A model generated the notes under the pieces. That model saw nothing but the letters and a program-made list of their open reading frames with translations, searched no databases and was not told the DNA's origin. DNA of 64,000 nt from Bdellovibrionales bacterium (lineage in GTDB: Bacteria; Bdellovibrionota; Bdellovibrionia; Bdellovibrionales; UBA1609). The number at the start of each line of letters is the position of its first letter. Within the stretch, counting starts at the first letter, position 1. Shown here piece after piece: positions 43,833 through 64,000 of this stretch. The translations under genes were made by a program, and so were the position numbers. The stretch is from NCBI GenBank assembly GCA_965261545.1, contig CBDHDF010000011.1, forward strand, positions 896,001 through 960,000. Reading direction: 5' to 3'.

Positions 43833-45742
43833 GTTCGCCGGGCGAACTGAGATAAGATAGGGGGTTAGAGTCCCCCGAGAGGAAGGTCAACCGACCACTT
43901 CTCTCCCCAAGCCGTGCGCTGTCGGCCGTGAGGCCGAAGCGATGTATCGGTAGGGGTGTGTGTGGGCCAAATAATTGAGCGTCGAAAATGCCGAACTCTG
44001 GAGTGCGGAGGCTGTCATGGTAGCCGAACGCAACATACCCACCAGCGCTATGGTGAGTTGGTGGGTGACTCCACGGCGTCGTAGAAACTGGCACATACAT
44101 GAATCTTATCCCGGGACCTCGGGAGGTCTTTATTTAACCCCGTCATGTGCGACGGGCGACATGGGAAAGGAGGTAACCGTAACCCATGAACGAAATAAAG
44201 AAATCGGATCCACTCATAGTAGCGATGAAGAGGACGAACAAAGGGCCTACAAGCCCAGCGGAGTCCTTGGAGCGAAGGGGTGGAACTGAAGGGAACTCAA
44301 TCCGTCAAAGCATCTGCCGAACACAGAGTTGGGAAAAGGTGTCACAGGCGACGGAGCGAGTCCGTATAGCAGCAAAGAGAAAGGATGGTAAGCTCACTTG
44401 CTTGCTTCACCATGTATCTGTGGAAGCCCTCCACTTGGCTTACCTCTATTTGAATAGGGGAGCCAGTGCGGGAGTGGACCATTTAACATGGAAGGAGTAT
44501 GGCGAGAACCTCGTGCAAAACCTGTTCGATTTACATCGTCGGGTCCACACGGGTGCTTACAAAGGGCAACCTGTCTTGCGGGTAGAAATACCCAAGTCAG
44601 ACGGGGGCACAAGACCCTTGGGTGTCCTGGCCTTGGAGGACAAGATTGTCCAGAAGGCCGTTGTAGACAGCATCCTCTCTCCCATCTACGAGGAACATTT
44701 CCTCGGTTATAGCTACGGATTCCGTCCAGGGCGTGGAGCGCATAATGCGTTGGATGCTCTGGCTTACGGAATAGAGCGTAGAAAGATCAGCTACATATTG
44801 GATGCGGATATAAAATCCTACTTCGATAGCGTGGATAGAAAGACTCTAATTCGCTTTCTAAAACACCTCATCGGAGATGAGAGACTCATTCGTCTCTTTG
44901 AAAAGTGGCTCAAGTGCGGAGTGCTATCTCAAGGCGTCTTAGAAGACACAGGGAGAGGGACCGTTCAAGGTTCAAATATTTCCCCTATCTTCGCCAACAT
45001 ATATTTACATTATGTGTTGGATTTATGGATGCAGAAATGGCGCAAGGACCATGCCACAGGGGACATGATATTTGTTCGCTACGCCGATGACTTTGTCGTA
45101 GGCTTTCAATACAAGGGGGAAGCTGAACGCTTCCTCAATGATCTGAAGCGCAGGCTTAAGGAGTTTTCTCTAGAAATACATCCGGGGAAAACTCGCCTCA
45201 TAGAGTTCGGTCGATTTGCAAATGCAAATTGCCGCCGACGAGGTCTTGGTCACTCCGAGACTTTTGATTTCTTAGGATTCACTCACTTTTGTGTGCGCAC
45301 GAGGAAAGGAGGCTTTAGGATAGGGCGTAAACCCATATCCAAGAGAGTCTGCCGGACCTTACAGCACCTGAAGCTGAGTCTGAGAAAACGAGTCTACACG
45401 AGGGACCTAGCGGAATGTGCAAAGTGGTTGGGTTTGGTCATCAAAGGCTGGCTCAATTATTTTGCGGTTCCAGGAAGTACGGTGTACCTACGAAAATTTA
45501 TTTGCGCAATCAGGAGTGCTTGGATGAAAGCCATCCGACGACGCTCACAGCGTGGACGGAGATTCTCGTGGAAGAGGTTGGATAGAATGATTCGTCTATT
45601 CTGGCCTCGTATATCCATACGCCACCCGTGGCCAACAGATAGGTTCGCTATGCGGTACCACCTGAAGTAGGAGCCGGATGCTTTAACGAGCACGTCCGGA
45701 TCTGTGCGGGGGGTGCGTGGCAACACGCATTCCTACCGTAAC
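43833..45742 (+). mobile_element. Group II intron copy 1 (1910 nt, class E-like)
   Basis: 5' GTTCG, 3' CCTACCGTAAC; DV GAGCCGGATGCTTTAACGAGCACGTCCGGATC; removing it restores one 23-bp repeat unit. Confidence 0.93.
44186..45670 (+). CDS. ltrA: Group II intron reverse transcriptase/maturase, no endonuclease domain
   Basis: AGVD, IPKSDGGTRPLG, SYGFRPGR, DADIKSYFD, GTVQG, RYADDF, FDFLGF, GWLNYF. Confidence 0.96.
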   Translation: MNEIKKSDPLIVAMKRTNKGPTSPAESLERRGGTEGNSIRQSICRTQSWEKVSQATERVRIAAKRKDGKLTCLLHHVSVEALHLAYLYLNRGASAGVDHLTWKEYGENLVQNLFDLHRRVHTGAYKGQPVLRVEIPKSDGGTRPLGVLALEDKIVQKAVVDSILSPIYEEHFLGYSYGFRPGRGAHNALDALAYGIERRKISYILDADIKSYFDSVDRKTLIRFLKHLIGDERLIRLFEKWLKCGVLSQGVLEDTGRGTVQGSNISPIFANIYLHYVLDLWMQKWRKDHATGDMIFVRYADDFVVGFQYKGEAERFLNDLKRRLKEFSLEIHPGKTRLIEFGRFANANCRRRGLGHSETFDFLGFTHFCVRTRKGGFRIGRKPISKRVCRTLQHLKLSLRKRVYTRDLAECAKWLGLVIKGWLNYFAVPGSTVYLRKFICAIRSAWMKAIRRRSQRGRRFSWKRLDRMIRLFWPRISIRHPWPTDRFAMRYHLK

Positions 45743-45880
45743 CAACTGGTGCGGGCAATGCCATGCAACTGGTGCGGGCAATGCCATGCAACTGGTGAGG
45801 GTAATGCCATGCAACTGGTGAGGGTAATGCCATGCAACTGGTGAGGGTAATGTCATGCAATCGGTGAGGGCAATGCCATG
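45743..45880. repeat. 138-bp tandem array (6 x 23 bp) of IS21-C terminal repeats
   Basis: Unit GTGMGGGYAATGCCATGCAACTG; inverted, degenerate copies at the other IS end (41336-41388). Confidence 0.93.
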
Positions 45881-47790
45881 GTTCGCCGGGCGAACTGAGA
45901 TAAGATAGGGGGTTAGAGTCCCCCGAGAGGAAGGTCAACCGACCACTTCTCTCCCCAAGCCGTGCGCTGTCGGCCGTGAGGCCGAAGCGATGTATCGGTA
46001 GGGGTGTGTGTGGGCCAAATAATTGAGCGTCGAAAATGCCGAACTCTGGAGTGCGGAGGCTGTCATGGTAGCCGAACGCAACATACCCACCAGCGCTATG
46101 GTGAGTTGGTGGGTGACTCCACGGCGTCGTAGAAACTGGCACATACATGAATCTTATCCCGGGACCTCGGGAGGTCTTTATTTAACCCCGTCATGTGCGA
46201 CGGGCGACATGGGAAAGGAGGTAACCGTAACCCATGAACGAAATAAAGAAATCGGATCCACTCATAGTAGCGATGAAGAGGACGAACAAAGGGCCTACAA
46301 GCCCAGCGGAGTCCTTGGAGCGAAGGGGTGGAACTGAAGGGAACTCAATCCGTCAAAGCATCTGCCGAACACAGAGTTGGGAAAAGGTGTCACAGGCGAC
46401 GGAGCGAGTCCGTATAGCAGCAAAGAGAAAGGATGGTAAGCTCACTTGCTTGCTTCACCATGTATCTGTGGAAGCCCTCCACTTGGCTTACCTCTATTTG
46501 AATAGGGGAGCCAGTGCGGGAGTGGACCATTTAACATGGAAGGAGTATGGCGAGAACCTCGTGCAAAACCTGTTCGATTTACATCGTCGGGTCCACACGG
46601 GTGCTTACAAAGGGCAACCTGTCTTGCGGGTAGAAATACCCAAGTCAGACGGGGGCACAAGACCCTTGGGTGTCCTGGCCTTGGAGGACAAGATTGTCCA
46701 GAAGGCCGTTGTAGACAGCATCCTCTCTCCCATCTACGAGGAACATTTCCTCGGTTATAGCTACGGATTCCGTCCAGGGCGTGGAGCGCATAATGCGTTG
46801 GATGCTCTGGCTTACGGAATAGAGCGTAGAAAGATCAGCTACATATTGGATGCGGATATAAAATCCTACTTCGATAGCGTGGATAGAAAGACTCTAATTC
46901 GCTTTCTAAAACACCTCATCGGAGATGAGAGACTCATTCGTCTCTTTGAAAAGTGGCTCAAGTGCGGAGTGCTATCTCAAGGCGTCTTAGAAGACACAGG
47001 GAGAGGGACCGTTCAAGGTTCAAATATTTCCCCTATCTTCGCCAACATATATTTACATTATGTGTTGGATTTATGGATGCAGAAATGGCGCAAGGACCAT
47101 GCCACAGGGGACATGATATTTGTTCGCTACGCCGATGACTTTGTCGTAGGCTTTCAATACAAGGGGGAAGCTGAACGCTTCCTCAATGATCTGAAGCGCA
47201 GGCTTAAGGAGTTTTCTCTAGAAATACATCCGGGGAAAACTCGCCTCATAGAGTTCGGTCGATTTGCAAATGCAAATTGCCGCCGACGAGGTCTTGGTCA
47301 CTCCGAGACTTTTGATTTCTTAGGATTCACTCACTTTTGTGTGCGCACGAGGAAAGGAGGCTTTAGGATAGGGCGTAAACCCATATCCAAGAGAGTCTGC
47401 CGGACCTTACAGCACCTGAAGCTGAGTCTGAGAAAACGAGTCTACACGAGGGACCTAGCGGAATGTGCAAAGTGGTTGGGTTTGGTCATCAAAGGCTGGC
47501 TCAATTATTTTGCGGTTCCAGGAAGTACGGTGTACCTACGAAAATTTATTTGCGCAATCAGGAGTGCTTGGATGAAAGCCATCCGACGACGCTCACAGCG
47601 TGGACGGAGATTCTCGTGGAAGAGGTTGGATAGAATGATTCGTCTATTCTGGCCTCGTATATCCATACGCCACCCGTGGCCAACAGATAGGTTCGCTATG
47701 CGGTACCACCTGAAGTAGGAGCCGGATGCTTTAACGAGCACGTCCGGATCTGTGCGGGGGGTGCGTGGCAACACGCATTCCTACCGTAAC
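45881..47790 (+). mobile_element. Group II intron copy 2 (1910 nt)
   Basis: Apparently identical to copy 1; sits between GCCATG and CAATTTTACA, the terminal unit of the IS. Confidence 0.93.
46234..47718 (+). CDS. ltrA: Group II intron reverse transcriptase/maturase
   Basis: Same protein as 44186-45670. Confidence 0.96.
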   Translation: MNEIKKSDPLIVAMKRTNKGPTSPAESLERRGGTEGNSIRQSICRTQSWEKVSQATERVRIAAKRKDGKLTCLLHHVSVEALHLAYLYLNRGASAGVDHLTWKEYGENLVQNLFDLHRRVHTGAYKGQPVLRVEIPKSDGGTRPLGVLALEDKIVQKAVVDSILSPIYEEHFLGYSYGFRPGRGAHNALDALAYGIERRKISYILDADIKSYFDSVDRKTLIRFLKHLIGDERLIRLFEKWLKCGVLSQGVLEDTGRGTVQGSNISPIFANIYLHYVLDLWMQKWRKDHATGDMIFVRYADDFVVGFQYKGEAERFLNDLKRRLKEFSLEIHPGKTRLIEFGRFANANCRRRGLGHSETFDFLGFTHFCVRTRKGGFRIGRKPISKRVCRTLQHLKLSLRKRVYTRDLAECAKWLGLVIKGWLNYFAVPGSTVYLRKFICAIRSAWMKAIRRRSQRGRRFSWKRLDRMIRLFWPRISIRHPWPTDRFAMRYHLK

Positions 47791-52355: not shown

Positions 52356-53549
52356 TCATACTATAGCTAAAAGTGGTCGCCGAGCCCCTTTTTCCTTAAA
52401 AGGATCAAATTGTCGACCTCTATCGCCACTTGTAATACTATCCACTTGAGGCATCACATCGAGAACATCAGTTGCACCTTTAACTTCAATTCCCGCAAAT
52501 CTGACATAAATCTGGAAAGTTTTTATATCTCTCCATCCACCGATTTTCATAACGGTGGCCTGATCGATCCCAGAAGCTAGCATGTGAGTGGCAAAGCAGG
52601 CTCTTAGTGAATGAAAGACGACATTGCTTTCAATGCCCAAGCCTTTCAAATATTGACGCAATACATCGCCAGCCTGACCATTCTTCCAAGCATAATGCCT
52701 CTCAAGAACAAAGTCTTCGGGTTGAGTATTACCTCCCCTTAATTTCAAAATGACCGATTTTAGATCATTTGAAATAGGAACAGATCGCCAGTACCCAGCC
52801 TTAGTGCTTTTGATAGTGCGGCGAGTATTATTGTAGGACTTCGATACGGTTATGATTCCCTTTTCGAGGTCAATGTCCCTCCACTGAAGGGCCATTAACT
52901 CTCCACTTCGCATTCCCGTACAAATAGCAAAAGCCCATGTGGGATACCAAGGGCTGTCGTTAAATCTGGCATTTTTAAGGAGAGTCCTAAGTTCATCTTT
53001 CGTGAGAATCTTAGGGACCCTTTCTTCCTTAGTTCCTACAATCAGACCTTCAGTTGGGCTCGAATGAATACCTAAAATGTATTTTTCCTCAACGGCCCAC
53101 TTAAACACAACATTGATAGAAGACTTGATATTCCTTAAAAGCCCCACTCCAGCACCATTGGCCTTAGCTGAGTCCAGAACCTGTCTTCCATCACCCTTGG
53201 TTAAGTCAGAAGCTCTACAGTCCCACCAGATATGGGTATAATTCCTTAATCTGTTGACATGAGCCTGTATGGTTAGCTTATCTGAGTACTTATCCCCAAG
53301 ATGCCCAACCCTAGCTTTGACTTCCCACCGATCTACAATCTCACCCCAAGTGAGACCGCGACCTTCAAGTTTTCCGACTTCCTCAATAACGCTCCTTAAG
53401 AGCCTTTTTTCCTCCCTTAAGGCTTTCTTCAAAGTCGGAATATTCTTCTTACTTCTTTGAAGCCTTAAGCTCGGGCTCAACCTTCCTCGTGTCTGAACAG
53501 ATACTCGAAAAAGTTCTACTCCATTATTTTTATAACTATTTACTGCCAT
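52356..53549 (-). CDS. Tyrosine recombinase/integrase 1
   Basis: TGMRSGEL, TK, FHSLRACFAT, GGW...FQIY; start set at MAVNSY by comparison with the paralog. Confidence 0.93.
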   Translation of the reverse strand: MAVNSYKNNGVELFRVSVQTRGRLSPSLRLQRSKKNIPTLKKALREEKRLLRSVIEEVGKLEGRGLTWGEIVDRWEVKARVGHLGDKYSDKLTIQAHVNRLRNYTHIWWDCRASDLTKGDGRQVLDSAKANGAGVGLLRNIKSSINVVFKWAVEEKYILGIHSSPTEGLIVGTKEERVPKILTKDELRTLLKNARFNDSPWYPTWAFAICTGMRSGELMALQWRDIDLEKGIITVSKSYNNTRRTIKSTKAGYWRSVPISNDLKSVILKLRGGNTQPEDFVLERHYAWKNGQAGDVLRQYLKGLGIESNVVFHSLRACFATHMLASGIDQATVMKIGGWRDIKTFQIYVRFAGIEVKGATDVLDVMPQVDSITSGDRGRQFDPFKEKGARRPLLAIV

Positions 53550-53811
53550 TATAAGCCTCCTTAAATGCTGAGGTTTCAATAAGGGCACAAAGTTCATCTT
53601 TCCTGAAGTAAAGTCTTCCCCGAAACTTCCTCGCTCTTAGAATCCCCCTATGAACAAGAATCCTAATCGCATTGGTATTTTTCCGAAGATATTGAACAGC
53701 TTCTTCCGTCGTTAACCAAACCAAATTTTCAAAGAACAAATCAGGGGCGCAAGTTCTATGACTCACATTCTGATCCCTGCCACTTTCCGTCTGACAGTTA
53801 CCTGAAACCAT
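53536..53811 (-). CDS. Excisionase-like HTH protein 1
   Basis: WLTTEEAVQYLRK...LYFRKDEL; overlaps the integrase start. Confidence 0.8.
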   Translation of the reverse strand: MVSGNCQTESGRDQNVSHRTCAPDLFFENLVWLTTEEAVQYLRKNTNAIRILVHRGILRARKFRGRLYFRKDELCALIETSAFKEAYNGSK

Positions 53812-53953
53812 ATCAAAACCCTCTTGGTTAGGCAAGTGAGAATTTCTAGAAACTTTCACAGAATTAGGGAATTTTTTAGAAAAAATTAGGTTAATCTTGC
53901 GACAAGTATCAATCAAGAACCTTCATTACTTTGATGATAGAATAAAAATCACA

Positions 53954-54421
53954 TCAAGTTTTTTCTGCCTTTTTTTCCTGAATCCACTTAATAAAATTCC
54001 TTACTGATTCCATCCACTCCCAATCATCCTCAAAGATCTCAGAAATACTCTCGGCGCGATGTGTCGTGTATTCTGCAATCCTCAGAGGAAACTCTTTTTG
54101 ACCATTGTTTAACAGGATATCTAAAGTCATTCTGATTTCATCAAGAATTTGATCGTGACCATGCTCTGTGTATCTGACATATCCTTCTGGAAAGTTAATC
54201 GCTTCATCAATAACCTTTTTTGCTCTCTCTAAGTCTCCGTTTGCTTGTCTTAAAGATATGGTCGCTATGAGTATCTTACGCAAAATTTTATCAGATTGAG
54301 CCCTCACCCATATAATAGATGATAAACTATCTATACCTAAGCAAGAGACTTTCTCTCTGATGCTGTCCAGATTTAAAGTATAATCTGAAAGGGCTACATC
54401 TAAAAACCGCTCTGATGTCAT
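53954..54421 (-). CDS. Hypothetical helical protein, 155 aa (last gene of the operon)
   Basis: 5 bp downstream of the DUF3326 gene, SD AAGGA; no motif recognised. Confidence 0.7.
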   Translation of the reverse strand: MTSERFLDVALSDYTLNLDSIREKVSCLGIDSLSSIIWVRAQSDKILRKILIATISLRQANGDLERAKKVIDEAINFPEGYVRYTEHGHDQILDEIRMTLDILLNNGQKEFPLRIAEYTTHRAESISEIFEDDWEWMESVRNFIKWIQEKKAEKT

Positions 54422-54426
54422 ATCCT

Positions 54427-55803
54427 TTAATCTAACCTCAAAACATTATTACCTATTATCTTTTTTTCTTCAGTGATATTCTCAATCTTACTCTCCAAAC
54501 TTTGCAAAGTGTGAAATGGTCTGCGAACAGAAAAAGGAGAAATTCCGTTTTTTATCGCATTTAGAACTCCAATGGCTTCCCAATAATTTTCTACACAAAA
54601 GAATTGACCGGTCTTCCAGGGAAGCTCACTCAGGCTGTTATTCATCAAGTTCTTATTTTCTTTCACTGCAATAACCTTAATGCCTTGTTCTAATGCAGCC
54701 AAGGTTGGTAAGCCAAGGCAGCCATCAGGAATCACTATGCATGAAATATCCTTTGCTGAAATAATATTGTCACAATAAAATGCATCCTGATCAGTAATAA
54801 TTTTAGGGCTTTGGTGGAGACCTTTTAAAACACAGTGCAAATAACTTGTAGAGACAGCCTCGGCGGACATTCTAGCATCCACAATGCCAGAATCCATATT
54901 GGCAATTTCAAGCGACTCAAACATAGGAGAATGAGCTGATGGAACATTAAATTTATAAGATAAAGCATGTGTTAGCATAGCCTCAACTCCCCCCCAAGGA
55001 TTAACCATGTCGCCCTCACTTCTGAAATAATCCATATGGTAACTCTTGGGAACCTCTATTATTGAGGATATAGCCACAGCATCATAATTTCCTTCATATT
55101 TTCTCAGAAGAGAGAACAGGTTGTTAATATTCTCTATAACTCCGGAAGCTCTTGCAGATTTGGCATATAAAGATTTCATTCGTATAGAAGGCCTTAGTTT
55201 AACAATATCAGAGCATTCAATCCCAAGAGTTGCTCTTGCTGCATTAATTGAATTAACCGCTGCATTTTCAAAAATCTTATGCTCATTTTCATCTATAATT
55301 GCCAGAATTCTATTGAACCTAACAGGCTGTAATCCAATAGTTCCCATCAATAAACGACAAATCGTACTGCCTTCTACATATAAACTGTTAGTGGTCATTT
55401 CGTTTATATCAGATGCATTAAAAACATTAGGGTGGGTGATGAGATTGTCACAAACGGATGCTATAAGTCTTGCTATGGGCGTGGCATCTCCGGCATGTCC
55501 CCCTATCTCACATCCAATACCAGTTGGAACGAGAAAGGCGATATTAAAATTTTTGGTGTTTTCAAACTTACGTTTTTTAAATTCAAAAAGAGTTTTGGCT
55601 TCATCAAAACCGCTCATATTTTCAGTGCTTAAAACGCCAACTTCACATTTGTATTTAGATTTTAAACTGTCAGTGATGACCATTCTTATGGGTAAAAGAC
55701 CTCGTTTACTTAATTTAACAGAAATTTCATTTTCAAGATAATTCAATAGATTTTCATTATTTTTAATCTTAGGAAGTAAAAGACTAGTTTCTGATAATTT
55801 CAT
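54427..55803 (-). CDS. DUF3326-domain protein
   Basis: VPTGIGCEIGGHAGDA, LITHPNVFNASD, YVEG, PWGGVEAMLTH, AHSP, CVLKGL. Confidence 0.85.
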   Translation of the reverse strand: MKLSETSLLLPKIKNNENLLNYLENEISVKLSKRGLLPIRMVITDSLKSKYKCEVGVLSTENMSGFDEAKTLFEFKKRKFENTKNFNIAFLVPTGIGCEIGGHAGDATPIARLIASVCDNLITHPNVFNASDINEMTTNSLYVEGSTICRLLMGTIGLQPVRFNRILAIIDENEHKIFENAAVNSINAARATLGIECSDIVKLRPSIRMKSLYAKSARASGVIENINNLFSLLRKYEGNYDAVAISSIIEVPKSYHMDYFRSEGDMVNPWGGVEAMLTHALSYKFNVPSAHSPMFESLEIANMDSGIVDARMSAEAVSTSYLHCVLKGLHQSPKIITDQDAFYCDNIISAKDISCIVIPDGCLGLPTLAALEQGIKVIAVKENKNLMNNSLSELPWKTGQFFCVENYWEAIGVLNAIKNGISPFSVRRPFHTLQSLESKIENITEEKKIIGNNVLRLD

Positions 55804-55808
55804 AAATA

Positions 55809-56972
55809 TTAACCTCCAAAATGACTTACATATTCTTCAAATGTAAAATGCTTTACTTTCTTTAAATCAGACTTGCCCTTTAAACAATAAATATCTGGTA
55901 AATTAATACCATTGAATGTATGAGATTTTACTAATGAGTAATGTCCTACATTTTTAAAAATTATCTTTGAGCCTAACTTTAATTTATCTTGAAAATAATA
56001 TGTGCCAAACATATCACCAGCCAAACAACTACAACCAGCTAGTATATATTCATTTTTATATTTTTTTTGATGGCCAAAAACATCAGGTTCATATTGATAC
56101 TCAAATACCTCTGGAAGGTGGTTAATGGTAGTGTCTAATATAGCAATATTCTTTTCTTTTCTCTGGAAAATATCAATAACAGAAGAGACGAGGTAGCCAC
56201 TATCGCCAACAAAAAAACTTCCCGGCTCTATTATAACATTGGTAAAATTATAATTCTGCTCAATTTCATTGAGAAGCTCATGAAATAAAGAAAGATTATC
56301 AGATTCATCAAACAAATAACCTCCACCTAAGTTAATCCATTGAAATTTCTTGAGGTCATCTTTGAGATGGGACTTAATTTTTAGGAAAGTCTCTGTTAAT
56401 TGAGATAAGTCTTTACTTTCACAGTTTGTATGTAAATGAAGACCACTGATTTTTTTAAAAAAATTTGCATCCTTGGATATATTCTCTTTGAGTTGTTCAA
56501 TAGGTACGCCAAGTTTTGAAAATTTATGGCAAGGATTATATCGGTCATCTTTTATAAAAGAAATTTCTGGATTTACTCTTATTCCATAACTCTGGTCTTT
56601 TCGTAATTTTTTTTCAAAGAAAGAAATTTGTTCTAAAGAATTAAATACCAAATAGCTAATATTATTTGAAATAGATCCCCATTGATCCTCTCTGATTCCA
56701 GGACTGACAAAATGAATGTTTTTCTTTTGTTGACACATAGTTTTCACTAATTGAGATTCAAATAAAGAACTCACAGAAAAACCATCTACTTGAGGCTCTA
56801 GCTCTCTTAATACATTATACAAAGGTAATGCTTTTACTGAATAAAGAATTTTGCACTTTAATCCACTAGTGATTTGATGGAGAAACTTTGCCTTCTCATT
56901 TACTTTATTTAAATTATAAATAAAGTAGGGAGTATTATTTATATCCTGAAGAGGCCAGGAGATATCCTTCAT
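55809..56972 (-). CDS. Carboxynorspermidine-decarboxylase-like PLP-dependent (group IV) decarboxylase
   Basis: PLP lysine YSVKA, RVNPE...YNPC...SKLG, GLHLH, NLGGG, EPG, SCLAGD, VKSHTFNG (NspC-type). Confidence 0.88.
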   Translation of the reverse strand: MKDISWPLQDINNTPYFIYNLNKVNEKAKFLHQITSGLKCKILYSVKALPLYNVLRELEPQVDGFSVSSLFESQLVKTMCQQKKNIHFVSPGIREDQWGSISNNISYLVFNSLEQISFFEKKLRKDQSYGIRVNPEISFIKDDRYNPCHKFSKLGVPIEQLKENISKDANFFKKISGLHLHTNCESKDLSQLTETFLKIKSHLKDDLKKFQWINLGGGYLFDESDNLSLFHELLNEIEQNYNFTNVIIEPGSFFVGDSGYLVSSVIDIFQRKEKNIAILDTTINHLPEVFEYQYEPDVFGHQKKYKNEYILAGCSCLAGDMFGTYYFQDKLKLGSKIIFKNVGHYSLVKSHTFNGINLPDIYCLKGKSDLKKVKHFTFEEYVSHFGG

Positions 56973-57730
56973 TTAAGAACTCCCATCTTTTTAAAATAAA
57001 ATGTTGCAAATCCTGAGAATATTTCTGATTCTTCTGCTAGATCTTTTGCCCGATTTTTTGCCAATTCTTTTATTTGAAGTATGTTATTCGGATCTTTCTT
57101 TATACACTCATATATGTGTTTATAATCCCGAAACTTACTTGCTCTCTCCTCCATGACTTCTTGACTATTTATTCCTGTCAATTTAATGGTCTCCGTTCCT
57201 CTATTACATTTTCCGATGGCTTTTATCATAATAGGTATCTCGTTTTTTCCGGGAAGGTCATATTCTATAAATTGAGATGGGTCCTCTTCTAAAGGGTTAA
57301 TCAGTAGCGGTTGTTCTTTGTGGAGATTATCTTTCTTATTATAAGCTCTTTTAGACTCATCTTCTAGTGGGAAATGTGTTTTCTTAGAAGTTTGATTGCA
57401 AGTCTTGCATGCAATGAGGAGGTTTTCCCACTCATAGGATAGCCACCAATAACCTTGATGTTGAGGCTGTTCTTTAACCTCGGATTTAGGACGAAAATGT
57501 TCAACATCGCTTTCTCGCCTTTGATCTCTCTTTCTTTCACAATAACAGCACTTATGATGTTGAGATTTATGAAGAAATTTCTTAATTTCTTCATTACGCC
57601 ATAAATTCTCAAATGTCTTTGAGTTTAATTCATTATTGTTGACTGCATCTTCAATCTTGTTAAGAACTCTGGTCTTCTTAGAGTCCATGAAATTATTTTC
57701 AGGAGGCTCTCTTCGATTAATTTTTATCAT
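56969..57730 (-). CDS. HNH endonuclease, PtuB/retron-effector-like
   Basis: CCYCE, DVEHFRPK, YWWLSYEWENLLIACKTCN, FPL, LLINP. Confidence 0.88.
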   Translation of the reverse strand: MIKINRREPPENNFMDSKKTRVLNKIEDAVNNNELNSKTFENLWRNEEIKKFLHKSQHHKCCYCERKRDQRRESDVEHFRPKSEVKEQPQHQGYWWLSYEWENLLIACKTCNQTSKKTHFPLEDESKRAYNKKDNLHKEQPLLINPLEEDPSQFIEYDLPGKNEIPIMIKAIGKCNRGTETIKLTGINSQEVMEERASKFRDYKHIYECIKKDPNNILQIKELAKNRAKDLAEESEIFSGFATFYFKKMGVLK

Positions 57731-57747
57731 TTTGTAGTACCAACTTC

Positions 57748-58962
57748 TTACTTTTTAAGTAATTGAATTAGTTCATTTACTCTTTTTCTGTCCTTTTCAT
57801 GATCCCACATAGGAAGTTCCCCTAGTTCAGACTCAATTTTCTTTAACCTATTTTTTTCTTCTTCAGTTCTAGAAGAAGTTTCCTTAAGATATATGTCTTT
57901 ATATTCTTTTAATAAACCTTCAGTACGCTTATTTCTTGTATCTGAAAGGTCAAAGATATCAGAAGTTAATATTTGATCGACTCTATAGCCCCTGAAGTCT
58001 CGTTTTAGATCGAAGCTCTCAGTATCACTATGTCCGTTTACATAGGAAGCTTTAATCAGTTGTGGCTCACCCTCCTCTAAATCAGCAAGTCCTAAAACAC
58101 AAATGGGAGTATGTGTACTACATATAAATTGTACTTTTGGAAACTTATCTGATAATGATTTTATAATGCTTCTTTGCCATCTTGGGTGTAGGTGTTGCTC
58201 AATTTCATCAATTATTACGATTCCTGAAATCTCATCTAAATTGAATGTATCACTACTTAGAAGCTTCCAGCTTAGAAAATCTAAAATAACAGAGGTTAAT
58301 GATTGGTAGCCATCACTTAGAGAGTTAAATGACATTTTTCTCCATTTTTTTGTTTCAACATATAGTCCTTTTTTTTCTAAAGTAATCTTATCGTTATCAT
58401 CTAATGTTAAAATTTCTTTTAAAATATTTTCTAACTTCTTCCATTCTTTCTCAGATTCACTGTAAATCCTTCTTGCACCTAGCTCTACATTTTGCAAACC
58501 AAATTCATAATTAAAAAGAGTATATAAAGAGTCAACGAGAGCATATTCTTCATAAGATTCTGTGCCTCTTATAGTCCTTCCTGACCCATAAGCTACAGCA
58601 AATATATCTTCTCTAGATTCTTTAGCTAATCCTTTAGGTTGAGAAATGGTCTCATTATTGCCATCTGAAACTATTTCAGTCTTGATTGTATATTCCTTAT
58701 TTGTATCATCTTTTAAAAAAACTTCAATAAAGCCCTCTTTTTCTTCATGTCTTAAAAAACCTCCATGTAATTCCGCAAGAAGAGCTGAAGCTCCTTCTTT
58801 ATCACATAATCCTATCGCCAGGCTTCTTAGAATTGTTGTTTTTCCTTGTCCATTATCTCCAGAAAGAAGAGACCAATTTTTTATCTCATTGTTATCTTCA
58901 AATGAAATCTCTACTTCTTTAAAGCACTTAATATTTTTAAGTATTAATTTTGATATTTTCAT
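57748..58962 (-). CDS. ABC-type ATPase, PtuA-like
   Basis: GDNGQGKT, LSDGYQ, IIDEIEQHLHPRWQ, STHTP. Confidence 0.9.
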   Translation of the reverse strand: MKISKLILKNIKCFKEVEISFEDNNEIKNWSLLSGDNGQGKTTILRSLAIGLCDKEGASALLAELHGGFLRHEEKEGFIEVFLKDDTNKEYTIKTEIVSDGNNETISQPKGLAKESREDIFAVAYGSGRTIRGTESYEEYALVDSLYTLFNYEFGLQNVELGARRIYSESEKEWKKLENILKEILTLDDNDKITLEKKGLYVETKKWRKMSFNSLSDGYQSLTSVILDFLSWKLLSSDTFNLDEISGIVIIDEIEQHLHPRWQRSIIKSLSDKFPKVQFICSTHTPICVLGLADLEEGEPQLIKASYVNGHSDTESFDLKRDFRGYRVDQILTSDIFDLSDTRNKRTEGLLKEYKDIYLKETSSRTEEEKNRLKKIESELGELPMWDHEKDRKRVNELIQLLKK

Positions 58963-59493
58963 TTCCTAATTGATTCCTTGTGCTTTTAATAGTTTATTTA
59001 TTCAATATCTTAATGTTTTGCTTTTAAGCTAGGGGTCTTCTCATAAGGCTTTTCATTATGAATAAATTCCATGGGTAAGGTTGGAGAAATACAGCCATTG
59101 GTTGCTTCTCTTAATATCTTAGTGCTGGAGAGTCTGCAGTTCTCAATTTTGCACTATATGTTGTCAACGCAGCGCATATAAATGCTATATGTAGCGGTTT
59201 TCTTGAAAACTGCGGTCTCTTCAAATTAATAGTTAAAGTTGGAATCTTTCCTCCCTTTTCCTTATGGAGGTATAGCCTAGCTGTATTAAAATAGCTCTTT
59301 GCATTATATTGTAAAAGAACTGCTATAGAACTACCGATATTTCCTAGAAATGACAACATTTTTTAGGCTCTTCCTTTACAATTCAAAGTGGAAGTGATTG
59401 AGCCGGAGATGAAAACTCCTCAAAGGACATCAAGCTTAAGGTGCCCCCTTACAAGAATCCAAAATAAATTACCACAAAGTACAATGAGGAGCT

Positions 59494-60222
59494 ATTGGGT
59501 AGAAGGGCCGGTTACCCGACCCAACCCCCGTTCCCACCACATCGTGCCCAATTAAGGCAATAGGCAGACGATAACTCCACTCACTCAACTATATCAATAT
59601 CGATCTATTCCCACAGTCTTCATCCCATTCAACTCATGGAAATACCCAGTGAGTGACCCTTGTTCACCTAGGACATCCGCCCATGTGACATCTTGGGATC
59701 CTCACCAGATAGATGAACTACCCTCTTCAGTTTCGTTTCCGTAATGTTGTTGGACTTTGTTAATCCCATTTACGTTTCTCTTCAAAGGTTAGAGTTACCT
59801 AAGCCCCTTCCCTCTACGGTCGTTACTCGCTTCATCGGTACTATGGACTCGCTGACTCCCTCATGTTCATTTCACCATTCTTGCTGTTTAGGCTTGTTTG
59901 GCAATACCCCATCCTAGGGGAACATGAGGGTCTCCCACGCTCACAAATACACCTTCAAAAAAGTGCCATGCTCTCAGACCCCGGCGGCGCCACCCTTGTT
60001 CTCCTCAGTTACAAAAGGGTGATGTTGTCTTCCACTTCTTGAACAGTGTCGACCACCACGGTATAAAATCTTTCGAGGCTCAATCACTTCAACCTTACGG
60101 CCCTTCTTTCTTGCTATCTACGCTTAACTCATATTGTTATGAGCCCAAGACTCGCTGCGGAGTGCGCTGAGGCACTTCTCCGTGTGGACTTTCACCACCG
60201 ATGTATTTACCTCGTGGCGCAC
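59494..60222 (-). mobile_element. ORF-less group II intron (about 729 nt)
   Basis: 5' GTGCGCCACGAG, 3' CTACCCAAT; DV/DVI hairpins; EBS1 loop TCAAGA pairs with exon TTTTGA; RT0 remnant FHELNGMKTVGID. Confidence 0.85.
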
Positions 60223-60360: not shown

Positions 60361-61515
60361 TTAGCCTCTTCCCATAAAATTGCTCATATCTAAGACCCTG
60401 TCACTTGCACTCGCCTGGGGCATCACGTCAAGAGCATCTGTTGCACCTTTAACATCAATCCCTGCAAGCCTGACATAAATCTGAAAAGTCTTGATGTCTC
60501 TCCAACCACCAATTTTCATAACAGTGGCTTGGTCGACCCCAGATGCCAGCATATGAGTGGCAAAGCAAGCCCTCAGTGAATGAAAGACGACATTGCTTTC
60601 AATGTCTAAGTCTTTTAAATATTGCCGCAGTACCTTGCCAGCCTGACCGTTTTTCCAAGCATAATGCCTTTCAAGGACAAAGCCTTCTGAGGGAGCGTCT
60701 TTTCTCAACTCTAAAATGACCGTTTTTAGGTCATTTGAAATAGGAATAGATCGCCAGTACCCAGCCTTAGTGCTTTTGATCGTACGGCGAGTGTTATTGT
60801 AGGACTTCGATACGGTTATAATTCCTTTTTCGAGGTCAATGTCCTTCCACTGAAGGGCCATTAGCTCTCCGCTTCTCATACCAGTGCAAACAGCAAAAGC
60901 CCATGTGGGATACCAAGGATTGTTGCTTGCTTTAGCCTGCTTAAGAAGCACCCTAAGCTCATCTTTTGTGAGAATCTTAGGGACCCTTTCTTCCTTAGTT
61001 CCCACCGTCAAGCCTTCAGTGGGGCTTGAGTGAACACCTAAAGCGTATTTCTCCTCAACCGCCCACCTAAACACAACATTGACGGAAGATTTGATACTCC
61101 TTAAAAGGCCAGTGCCAGCACCCTTGGCTTTTGCTGAATCTAGAACCTGCCTTCCATCACCCTTGGTTAAATCAGAAACCCTACAGTTCCACCAGATTTG
61201 TGTGTAATTTCTTAATCTGTTGACATGGGCTTGTATGGTTAAGTTATCTGAGTATTTATCCCCCAGATGCCCAATCTTAGCTTTAATTTCCCATCGGTCT
61301 ACAATCTCACCCCAAGTGAGACCACGACCTTCAAGTTTTGCAACCTCCTGAGTGACGCTCTGTAAGAGTTTTTTTTCAACTCTTAAGGCTTCTTTCAAGG
61401 TGGGAATATTCTTCTTACTTCTTTGCAGCCTTAAGGTTCGAATCAATCTTCCTCGTGCCTGAACAGAAACCCTAAAAAATTCCACTTCATTTTTATTATA
61501 GCTATTAATTGCCAT
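60361..61515 (-). CDS. Tyrosine recombinase/integrase 2
   Basis: Close paralog of integrase 1 with the same catalytic motifs. Confidence 0.93.
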   Translation of the reverse strand: MAINSYNKNEVEFFRVSVQARGRLIRTLRLQRSKKNIPTLKEALRVEKKLLQSVTQEVAKLEGRGLTWGEIVDRWEIKAKIGHLGDKYSDNLTIQAHVNRLRNYTQIWWNCRVSDLTKGDGRQVLDSAKAKGAGTGLLRSIKSSVNVVFRWAVEEKYALGVHSSPTEGLTVGTKEERVPKILTKDELRVLLKQAKASNNPWYPTWAFAVCTGMRSGELMALQWKDIDLEKGIITVSKSYNNTRRTIKSTKAGYWRSIPISNDLKTVILELRKDAPSEGFVLERHYAWKNGQAGKVLRQYLKDLDIESNVVFHSLRACFATHMLASGVDQATVMKIGGWRDIKTFQIYVRLAGIDVKGATDALDVMPQASASDRVLDMSNFMGRG

Positions 61516-61778
61516 TATAAGCCCTCCTTAAATGCTGAGGTTTCAATAAGGACACAAAGCTCATCTTTTCTGAAGTAAAGTCTTCTCCGAAACTTCCTTG
61601 CTCTTAGAAGCCCTCTATGAACAAGAATCCTAACCGCATTGGCACTTTTCCGAAGGTACTGAGCAGCTTCTTCTGTTGTTAACCAAACTAAATTGTCAAA
61701 GAGCAAATCAGGGTCGTGCGTTTCGTGACTGGCACCCTGACCTCTGTCACCTTTTGTTTGACAGTTATCTAAAATCAT
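61515..61778 (-). CDS. Excisionase-like HTH protein 2
   Basis: Paralog of 53536-53811; TAATG coupling to the integrase. Confidence 0.82.
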   Translation of the reverse strand: MILDNCQTKGDRGQGASHETHDPDLLFDNLVWLTTEEAAQYLRKSANAVRILVHRGLLRARKFRRRLYFRKDELCVLIETSAFKEGL

Positions 61779-62253: not shown

Positions 62254-64000
62254 TTATAGGCTTAAGCCATGGTTTCTTGTTATTGCTTTTTGTATGCAAA
62301 CAGTTGAGACAGAAATATCAAGGGGTTGAAGGTGCTTTTTTTGAAGGTGGAGAAAGTCATTTTTTTCGACCTGTCGTTCTTTGTTCTCTGACTCAACAAA
62401 ATCAATATGTCGAATATGGGGCCTTGTCGCTAAGAAAATATGAAAAGATTTTTCATCCAAACCCTTCAAAACAAGAGAGGGTTCTTGTTTTCCACGGAAT
62501 CCTTTTCTTTCATGGGCCTTCAGGAAACTAAGAAAATCAGTGTAAACAGTGACACGGTTTCCACGGCTATAGGAATCAATAAATGGAATGTCCGGTGGCC
62601 CATGGTATTTAGATGTGTAACCTTTGTTTAAGTCCCATGTGTACTGAATGGCTTTGTTATTTTCATCATCAGAGTAAAACCAAATGCCACCTTTTTTATC
62701 CACTTTCACTCTTTTTTGTTGAAAAAGATCATCAGCAAGGCTTTCTTTGATTTTGTGATGTCTGAAAAACTGTGTCACCCTGTTCATTGCAATTTGTGGA
62801 CTTTCTTCTTTGATCTTTGGAATGTAAAAAGGCTTGTAGGTTGTTTTTACCTCTCCAAAATGTTGCTCTAAGAGAAGAAGGTTTTTGTTGTCTGTGATCT
62901 TTGAAATGGCCGCCAAGAAGTTCATGTCTTCGTGGAGACTGACAAGCTCAATGAGTGACCCTGTGGTTTTGTTCTTTGTATTCGTCCATCTATTTCCATG
63001 GATGACAACGTGTTCTCGTCCTTTTAAAGTCGTTTGTCCTTTTTTGTTTTCTGTACAGGCTATATTGTGCCTCTTGCAGTAATCCAAAATGTCACAGTTT
63101 GAAGCTCGCCTTATCTCACCAATAGGCACCGTAGAGTCCCTAAGAGCATGATCTGAGGGAAGAGGAGTCCTGTTCTCACGACGATGGCTTTTTGTGTAAG
63201 ATTCATAGTCTTTTACTTGATGCTTTTGTGCATTTCCTCCCATCATGGAAAGTGGGTCTGAAGGCCCCAAAAAGTCTCCTTTTCCGTCTTTGAAATGATT
63301 GATTCCGTCTCTGATTTTTCTCTTTACCTGGGGTTGCTTGAGAAATAACTCATCATTGGATTTGAACTTTTCAACAAGTCCTGGTTTGTCATAGTGATTT
63401 CCTAGTTGTTTGCCTCGGATGCCCTTCTCATGTCCTTCATAATGATAGGTGATGGTCTTTTCAGTAATAGCCACTTTGACAGAGAGTTCGTTCAAAATGC
63501 TCACATATTCATCAAAACTTGTGGCATAGCTTCTTGCAAAATCAGCCTTTTGGAAAAGGTCCAGTCTGTAAGATTTGCCACCCCGACGTTGAATCTCTCG
63601 CACCTTTTGGGGAAGCCTTTTACTTCTGGTTTTGTCAGTTTCTCGAATAATGGAAAGTCCATGTTCTCTTACTATTTCGTCTGAAATACTTCGCAGGTTA
63701 TAGAGATGTTCCTTTTTATTTATTATGTCTCTTTTTCCTGTTTTTTCATTCACTGGGTTAACAAGAATATGGTTGTGGGTCTTACTGGTGTCTGTATGTG
63801 TGACCACAACAAATTCATGATTTGGGAAATAGCGTTTGGTCAATTCCACCCCCATGGAATTGACACTTTCTGCCGACAAGACTTGACTTTCTTCAGGCTT
63901 GAAGCTGTGAATCACCTCAAAGGCGACATTGACATTCCTGCCTCCATGGGGTTTATGTTTATTATACAAGACTTGAGTGCGCTCAAACTGCCTAATGGCC
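62254..64000 (-). CDS. Relaxase/mobilization nuclease (MOBP-like) with a long C-terminal extension; 5' end off the window
   Basis: HSF motif II and HTDTSKTHNHILVN (3H motif); frame open to the window edge. Confidence 0.88.
   Translation of the reverse strand, partial: AIRQFERTQVLYNKHKPHGGRNVNVAFEVIHSFKPEESQVLSAESVNSMGVELTKRYFPNHEFVVVTHTDTSKTHNHILVNPVNEKTGKRDIINKKEHLYNLRSISDEIVREHGLSIIRETDKTRSKRLPQKVREIQRRGGKSYRLDLFQKADFARSYATSFDEYVSILNELSVKVAITEKTITYHYEGHEKGIRGKQLGNHYDKPGLVEKFKSNDELFLKQPQVKRKIRDGINHFKDGKGDFLGPSDPLSMMGGNAQKHQVKDYESYTKSHRRENRTPLPSDHALRDSTVPIGEIRRASNCDILDYCKRHNIACTENKKGQTTLKGREHVVIHGNRWTNTKNKTTGSLIELVSLHEDMNFLAAISKITDNKNLLLLEQHFGEVKTTYKPFYIPKIKEESPQIAMNRVTQFFRHHKIKESLADDLFQQKRVKVDKKGGIWFYSDDENNKAIQYTWDLNKGYTSKYHGPPDIPFIDSYSRGNRVTVYTDFLSFLKAHERKGFRGKQEPSLVLKGLDEKSFHIFLATRPHIRHIDFVESENKERQVEKNDFLHLQKKHLQPLDISVSTVCIQKAITRNHGLSL

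Follow-up and report, generated by a model that had tools for sequence, protein, structure and literature searches.

Can the nuclease of an anti-phage system be governed by a small polyamine? This question is raised by a 64,000-nucleotide stretch of DNA from a Bdellovibrionales bacterium (GenBank assembly GCA_965261545.1, contig CBDHDF010000011.1, positions 896,001 to 960,000; the whole stretch is referred to as the window and its source genome as G000), in which a Septu-like pair of genes, encoding the ATPase PtuA and the HNH nuclease PtuB, runs directly into genes for an NspC-like decarboxylase and a DUF3326 protein. A first-pass annotation had proposed that five genes here form a new defence system, in which a small amine or a nucleic-acid modification controls the nuclease. 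The present analysis finds that the locus is an intact Septu variant of four genes, two of which form a probable polyamine cassette, and that it is carried by a mobilisable integrative element. The enzymes and PtuAB are likely to be functionally coupled in some way; a more tentative proposal, its chance put slightly below even, is that the amine holds PtuAB in check until it is perturbed by infection.

Gene Content of the Operon

According to the list of open reading frames (ORFs) of the window, five consecutive minus-strand ORFs are separated by gaps of 17, -4 (ATGA), 5, and 5 bp, exactly as first annotated:

57748..58962, minus strand: ptuA, PtuA-type ABC ATPase of 404 aa, without N-terminal sensor fusion (PADLOC E 8.7e-67)
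56969..57730, minus strand: ptuB, PtuB-type HNH nuclease of 253 aa (PADLOC E 3.2e-55; TIGR02646 over cut-off)
55809..56972, minus strand: NspC/CASDC-like decarboxylase dependent on pyridoxal 5'-phosphate (PLP), 387 aa, its start overlapping the ptuB stop in ATGA
54427..55803, minus strand: DUF3326 protein of 458 aa (PF11805 E 4e-94), a long form with an extra N-terminal alpha/beta domain of ~85 aa
53954..54421, minus strand: protein of 155 aa, helical-looking throughout, from a small family with no named family assigned

A conservation alignment shows the motifs of PtuA to be intact, with Walker A at G35-K41, the LSDG signature, Walker B at D252/E253, and H284, D-loop and His switch included, and its best Foldseek matches are the PtuA proteins of retron I-A and of Septu (E 3.5e-18 to 1.2e-17). 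Directly downstream, PtuB keeps its catalytic and zinc residues, with C61/C64, H78, N103, C108/C111, and N112 invariant across 100 rows. The PADLOC matches of both proteins agree with their annotation as a Septu-like pair. The decarboxylase holds decarboxylase domains only and scores 286.7 bits against TIGR01047, below the nspC cut-off of 409.05; its best matches in the PDB are carboxy(nor)spermidine decarboxylases (E 1.4e-56), K47, G216-218, E249, C316, and Y345 are invariant across 68 rows, and the PLP lysine K47 and catalytic cysteine C316 align to 9eaf. The naming of this gene as NspC-like, and of the next as DUF3326, thus stands. As also noted at first pass, neither a carboxy(nor)spermidine dehydrogenase nor a retron reverse transcriptase (RT) is adjacent to the operon in the window, and the dehydrogenase family PF16653 (CASDH) has no match anywhere in G000, a genome 96.8% complete. 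A scan for promoters and terminators gave 33 hits against 24.5+/-5.3 in shuffled sequences, no useful excess.

The conserved unit is the intact 4.5-kb run of the first four genes, and the 155-aa gene is a passenger outside it. No match to the latter was found among loci L001-L161, and a homologue is present without the module in genome G328, by which a five-gene system was ruled out. The family counts 26 representatives at E<=1e-10 and weakly resembles part of a 621-aa protein and DUF6880 clusters.

Conservation of the Four-Gene Unit

Two sets of loci were compiled, one anchored on DUF3326 (160 loci, namely the best 80 of at least 418 GTDB matches and the best 80 of at least 444 metagenome matches) and one anchored on PtuA (79 loci from the best 80 of 342 matches to a profile of linked proteins). 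In the former, ptuA and/or ptuB lie within 3 kb in 46 of 160 loci, and a decarboxylase adjoins DUF3326 in 142 (74 NspC-like, 67 SpeD-like, 1 labelled both), the remainder being cut at the 5' end (12) or devoid of a decarboxylase (6). DUF3326 is present in 35 of the 79 PtuA-anchored loci, 20 of these being new, and the decarboxylase alone in 2; the figure of 35 is inflated because the profile was built from linked proteins, which weakens it as an argument for coupling.

Once 28 duplicate or short loci had been dropped, ptuB, the decarboxylase gene, and DUF3326 were colinear in 60 loci including the window, with ptuA in 58. Of these 60 loci, 19 have no phylum label and the rest bear 16 different NCBI labels, including an archaeal one; the decarboxylases of the 60 are SpeD-like in 37 and NspC-like in 23. 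The gap between ptuB and the decarboxylase gene is at most 76 bp in 56 of the 60 and a 4-nt overlap in 12, and the four-gene order lies far beyond chance expectation. Chance cargo on a mobile element, for which the position between integrase modules and a genome full of mobile DNA might speak, and of which the 155-aa gene is an instance, is refuted for the four genes by this colinearity and is a most improbable account of the locus. On the DUF3326 tree (FastTree, 142 rows), the PtuAB link changes at least 15 times and, among linked rows, the decarboxylase type at least 7 times, which suggests that the chemistry was retained while the gene was replaced.

In 14 of the first 161 loci, the operon is joined by a gene for an MfnB-like 4-HFC-P synthase (PF04476), which stands directly 5' of ptuA in L017, L085, L088, L185, L233, and others, as the fifth gene of a sub-variant. 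Second ptuA-ptuB pairs occur directly before or after the four-gene operon (L001:6834-13423; L010/L175; L222).

Chemistry of the Enzyme Pair

DUF3326 is flanked by decarboxylases of three unrelated folds, namely PLP fold III, SpeD-like pyruvoyl, and phosphatidylserine-decarboxylase-like (PSD-like), which suggests that its product is carboxylated. The slot first described as NspC-like is therefore interchangeable. In the SpeD-like proteins, S83/H88/C103 correspond to T. maritima S63/H68/C83, with Thr, not Glu, preceding the serine. Across 234 cellular and viral DUF3326 rows, a Gly-rich PTGIGxxIGGHAGD loop is conserved in at least 95%, as are H124, D132, E135, E144, E274, H291, and E315; at a guess from these residues, the set would fit a cofactor- or metal-dependent condensation. 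The predicted structure (predicted local distance difference test score, pLDDT, 83) found no fold match at Z>=8 with Foldseek and VIA, only generic Rossmann-like or lumazine-synthase-like partial matches, the best at Z 6.5 with a root-mean-square deviation of 4.5 over 142 aligned residues, and DUF3326 has no sequence relative in the PDB.

The family, called uncharacterised at first pass, is no longer wholly so. In a preprint (bioRxiv 10.64898/2026.06.12.731819), formation of N-(5-aminopentyl)pentane-1,5-diamine, a cadaverine-type triamine obtained as the free amine, depends on two proteins together: PavA, with domains like NspC, and PavB, of the DUF3326 family. Since that pair makes a triamine, polyamine synthesis is likely here too, and the enzymes of the window probably make an unusual polyamine. 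DUF3326, the proposed amine-condensing enzyme, would join a diamine or basic amino acid to an amino acid, giving a carboxy-polyamine from which the decarboxylase would remove CO2 to leave an unusual symmetrical, triamine-like polyamine. Of the annotated proposal, the amine has thus gained experimental support from another pathway and is favoured as the product over a nucleic-acid modification, and control of the nuclease is what we infer. The family is also named in a legend to a ferredoxin gene cluster (PMC4284462) and in a potato transcriptome. DUF3326 was considered as the missing dehydrogenase of Synechocystis and discarded in that role, which Slr0049 fills.

Relation to Known Systems

Type I Septu (stand-alone PtuA-PtuB; 8ee4/8eea) shares with the locus the succession of ABC ATPase and HNH nuclease, the intact motifs, and the fold. 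In contrast, the operon of the window adds a co-transcribed decarboxylase and DUF3326, and its PtuA is ~20% identical to the solved PtuA and bears a residue, Tyr147, that tracks the module; judged by the four-gene order in 58 loci, the two Septu genes would not be the whole system. An apparent analogue is retron type I-A (Ec78/Eco7, Ec83), which likewise seems to hold PtuAB under an added control module: in the accessible text of PMC12819146, it sequesters the toxic PtuAB with RT-msDNA. However, the PtuA of the window has 404 aa against ~550 aa, and its proteins do not reach the NCBIfam cut-offs for retron PtuA and PtuB. No full-length RT was found near any linked operon among the loci searched by phmmer with the group II RT of the window as query, a search that a very distant RT could escape; the tight junctions leave no room for an RT inside the operon, and a scan of the region upstream with Rfam, in a set of models containing none specific to retrons, gave only a group II intron. 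The retron reading was rejected, given the lack of RTs in linked operons and the assignment of those at 44186 and 46234 to group II introns.

On the metabolic side, PavA and PavB of the pavettamine cluster share, at family level, an NspC-like decarboxylase beside DUF3326. The decarboxylase of the window, unlike theirs, has no Rieske domain, and the JmjC protein PavC is missing with no cupin gene as neighbour, so that this is not the pathway to the hydroxylated toxin; the partner here is a nuclease. The spermidine routes through CASDH and CASDC (NspC) or CAPADH and CAPADC, as described in the passages available from PMC10599626, share a fold-III PLP decarboxylase after a condensation step, whereas G000 has no such enzyme of the saccharopine dehydrogenase family, DUF3326 takes the partner slot, and the decarboxylase scores below the nspC cut-off. 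Polyamine genes are also known in operons of PspA/CesT-DUF350 and GSP ligase (PMC11237479, in part), 24 of which among the 160 loci end in the same decarboxylase-DUF3326 pair; theirs is a context of envelope stress with no nuclease, and the available passages of that paper do not mention DUF3326 by name. Coupling of PtuA or Septu to polyamine enzymes was not found in print, subscription journals lying outside the coverage.

Control of the Nuclease

What the enzymes might do for PtuAB is suggested by its sisters. The 42 PtuA-anchored loci without the enzymes comprise 26 long N-terminal fusions, 13 unfused or split proteins, and 3 lone ptuA genes. Extra domains were found in 14 of 15 scanned sister PtuA proteins without enzymes, with TIR in 9, and the fused domains are TIR, Roc-COR, STAND/TPR, protease, RAMP, and phosphoesterase. 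Together with the sequestration of PtuAB in retron I-A, these fusions suggest that the enzyme pair may occupy a regulatory slot. PtuA genes fused to RAMP (CRISPR type III-like) or LRR-Roc-COR(-TIR) domains and followed by ptuB were seen at L216:3826-7245 and in L208, L200, and L227.

PtuA and PtuB, intact by homology, form the ATP-regulated nuclease effector, and the polyamine would take the regulatory place of RT-msDNA in retron I-A or of the fused TIR, Roc, or STAND domains in sister PtuA. The polyamine may bind PtuA, for which segment 128-157 with Tyr147 is the candidate site, or it may shield the nucleic-acid target, the nuclease being kept off in either case. Infection would drain or alter the amine or its precursors, and the released PtuAB would cut tRNA or DNA and abort the infection. 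Phages that have only the two enzymes may replenish this off-signal. Segment 128-157 is a conserved aromatic/acidic stretch with pLDDT<50 in the monomer model, and aromatic/acidic pockets of this sort can bind polyamines. All 58 linked rows have Tyr147 and none of the 37 unlinked rows does, a count that omits six rows (one truncated at a contig end, two additional copies next to a module, and the three lone ptuA genes). In the clade of the window, the three ptuA genes without enzymes (L170, L178, and L180) are also without ptuB, and one retains a DUF3326 tail.

Several observations weigh against this restraint. All six rows omitted from the count keep the Tyr, and the pattern amounts to ~4 changes on the tree, with an underpowered independent-pairs test at p=0.5 (2 pairs the same way, 0 opposite, 2 without difference). 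The three lone ptuA genes come from two genomes and are explained by simple block deletion, and ~10 unfused PtuAB pairs of the same family stand without any module. Finally, the distances of PtuA and DUF3326 correlate with a rho of 0.18 (0.08, p=0.17, without the clade of the window), compared with 0.27-0.31 for PtuA and PtuB. A correlation this weak favours a diffusible product over a protein contact under co-evolution, but it also shows that the pairing is reshuffled.

Conservation of the operon and the Tyr147 pattern would also fit if the amine were an activator or cofactor needed to switch PtuAB on, whether made or accumulated on infection or used for oligomer assembly. In the accessible part of 10.1101/2022.04.01.486733, polyamines rise in phage-infected Pseudomonas, and the swappable effectors found with the pair (PtuAB, a 4-6-TM protein, and an HD-motif protein) resemble signalling-type defence. 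However, neither enzyme shows an evident sensor domain, genes that produce an activator would be improbable cargo for phages, and the near clade lost ptuB together with the enzymes; we regard activation as unlikely.

Other Partners and Defence Context

The decarboxylase-DUF3326 pair is a general cassette, and this too tells against a dedicated role in restraining PtuAB. It serves a metabolite pathway as well, and non-defence operons use it, with GSP ligase/Psp operons making up 24 and a Chloroflexota SecA-like cluster 25 of the 160 loci. Further partners within 3 kb are a multi-helix membrane protein (15 loci, plus one shared with ptuAB), an HD-motif protein (5), and others (15), while 30 loci are too short. 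The membrane and HD partners have no match in Pfam, PADLOC, or the PDB, and the Atlas gives only hypothetical clusters. Near-sister DUF3326 proteins may have different partners (PtuAB in L096 and HD in L102; PtuAB in L052 and membrane in L050), and L012 retains the cassette without ptuAB. In the Chloroflexota-type loci (L025, L043, L054, and 22 more), DUF3326 and an NspC-like gene accompany a ~475-aa protein without family, whose Cys...His motif is transglutaminase-like by eye, along with a channel, a SecA-like protein, and DUF4178/DUF350 genes.

This promiscuity, like the weak PtuA-DUF3326 co-divergence and the case of L012, would suit two parallel defences on one transcript, in which an ordinary Septu works beside a polyamine that exerts no direct control over it and acts by itself, either against phage replication or as a stabiliser of the cell under stress. 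Known polyamine genes in the Psp/GSP operons (PMC11237479, in part) point the same way, as does the inhibition of some phages by intracellular polyamines described in the available text of 10.1101/2022.04.01.486733. Against this stand a gene order kept constant and junctions kept tight across 16 phylum labels despite repeated decarboxylase swaps, and the tracking of the module by Tyr147, so that parallel defences, too, have a low probability.

The neighbourhoods were scanned with PADLOC at E<=1e-10 (105 of 129 neighbouring proteins from 22 loci of PtuAB, membrane, or HD type), and 23 of the 105 neighbours, in 13 of the 22 loci, gave matches. Clear restriction-modification, Ssp, or Sir2-type neighbours, judged by reading, were present in 10 of 22 loci (membrane 4/10, HD 2/2, PtuAB 4/10), compared with 3 short generic matches among 113 neighbours of 20 GSP/Chloroflexota control loci; the loci were hand-picked by length and many controls are kin, which makes this a contrast, not a statistic. 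The earlier caveat that the pair might never occur elsewhere with PtuAB or in defence islands is thus answered by many phyla and defence-rich neighbourhoods. The annotated tie to defence has to be qualified by the occurrence of the pair in non-defence operons and in phages.

Viral Copies of the Enzyme Pair

IMG/VR yielded 64 viral DUF3326 loci, some of them near-duplicates, with a SpeD-like gene in 47 (within 1.2 kb in 44) and a phosphatidylserine-decarboxylase-like gene (PF02666) in 9. PtuA and NspC-like genes were found in none of the 64, which gave one weak HNH match, and a single-sequence query found no NspC-like relative in viral contigs. Conversely, 44 viral loci from a SpeD-like profile have DUF3326 within 1.5 kb in 32 and at ~2 kb in 2, with none in 9 and one locus cut. 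Neighbouring genes encode terminases, portals, DnaB, C5 methylases, and nicotinate phosphoribosyltransferase. DUF3326 had no match in the collections of cultured phages (INPHARED) and plasmids (PLSDB). The PF02666 partner lies 3' of DUF3326 and marks a clade of large viral contigs (L325, L328, L329, L332, L333, and L335-L338).

The viral copies fit a counter-defence that supplies the off-signal and, equally, an ordinary phage polyamine supply. Polyamine genes are common in phages according to the available part of PMC10407285, and the copies need not be anti-defence, which again counts against restraint by the amine. With these copies as counter-defence, the pair might be the core of a new polyamine-controlled anti-phage class with swappable effectors (PtuAB, the 4-6-helix membrane protein, and the HD-motif protein), a possibility to which we give rather less than an even chance.

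Self-marking in the style of restriction-modification would instead put the amine on DNA, tRNA, or PtuA and let PtuB cut what is unmarked, the viral copies then resembling orphan methylases. It finds some support in viral copies that adjoin C5 methylases and, in L277, a thymidylate-kinase-like gene, and in the restriction-modification genes that are often neighbours. However, the sole tested DUF3326 pair yields a free triamine (bioRxiv 10.64898/2026.06.12.731819, in part), the operon holds no transferase or nucleic-acid-binding gene, and the membrane and HD partners do not fit, all of which makes self-marking distinctly improbable.

Mobile Setting and Host Genome

The operon is AT-rich cargo between two integrase modules, as first described: its genes have a GC content of 0.30-0.37, lower than that of the two integrases (0.43-0.44) and of the contig (0.41). 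The surrounding features are:

52356..53597, minus strand: second tyrosine integrase, 81% identical to that at 60361-61515
53536-53916: HTH_17 excisionase-like gene accompanying the second integrase
59493..60222, minus strand: ORF-less group II intron of ~730 nt (Rfam RF02005, 125.8 bits) and not a retron ncRNA, between the upstream integrase and ptuA; absent from the first-pass annotation
60361..61515, minus strand: tyrosine integrase of the upstream module, by family matches
61515-61778: excisionase-like gene preceding the upstream integrase
62254-63969: relaxase of the upstream module

The ORF-less intron has 17 other partial matches in the genome at 81-98%, shares almost no similarity with the RT-bearing intron of the window, and is probably mobilised in trans. 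Two identical RT-encoding group II introns lie in tandem, 2048 bp apart, at 43867-47718 on the plus strand (RT ORFs 44186-45670 and 46234-47718). The load of mobile elements in G000 is extreme. IS21-like and IS4-like copies, almost identical to one another, number in the dozens, and among the many related integrase/relaxase modules several follow one another in tandem and enclose cargo; one carries a methylase-containing cluster, as read from ORF sequences.

The host has SpeA, SpeD, and SpeE by genome search, and no match to DHS was found in G000, so that, CASDH being absent as well, there is no housekeeping deficit for the cassette to make good. Among the related genomes searched, the distribution of DUF3326 is patchy, with 4 of 36 from the same family and 0 of 24 from the same order having it, and housekeeping complementation was rejected on these grounds. 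The closest relatives of the operon, among the matches listed, are in Bdellovibrionales and in metagenome-assembled genomes of Dadabacteria/Thermodesulfobacteriota. A second cassette in G000, near an integrase, combines SpeD-like and DUF3326 genes with a divergent membrane-partner gene (L162:6405-9520, G000 C2), and a DUF3326 fragment is carried in addition (L163). Among same-family genomes, a diverged DUF3326 faces a rearranged NspC-like gene in one (L257:3568-7590) and stands alone in another (L258:6867-8255).

Implications

If the enzymes do make the amine that restrains PtuAB, a metabolite would join nucleic acids and nucleotide messengers as a means of controlling a defence nuclease. Polyamine genes borne by phages would gain a testable purpose, and a chemistry would be assigned to DUF3326, a widespread family without a close solved fold.

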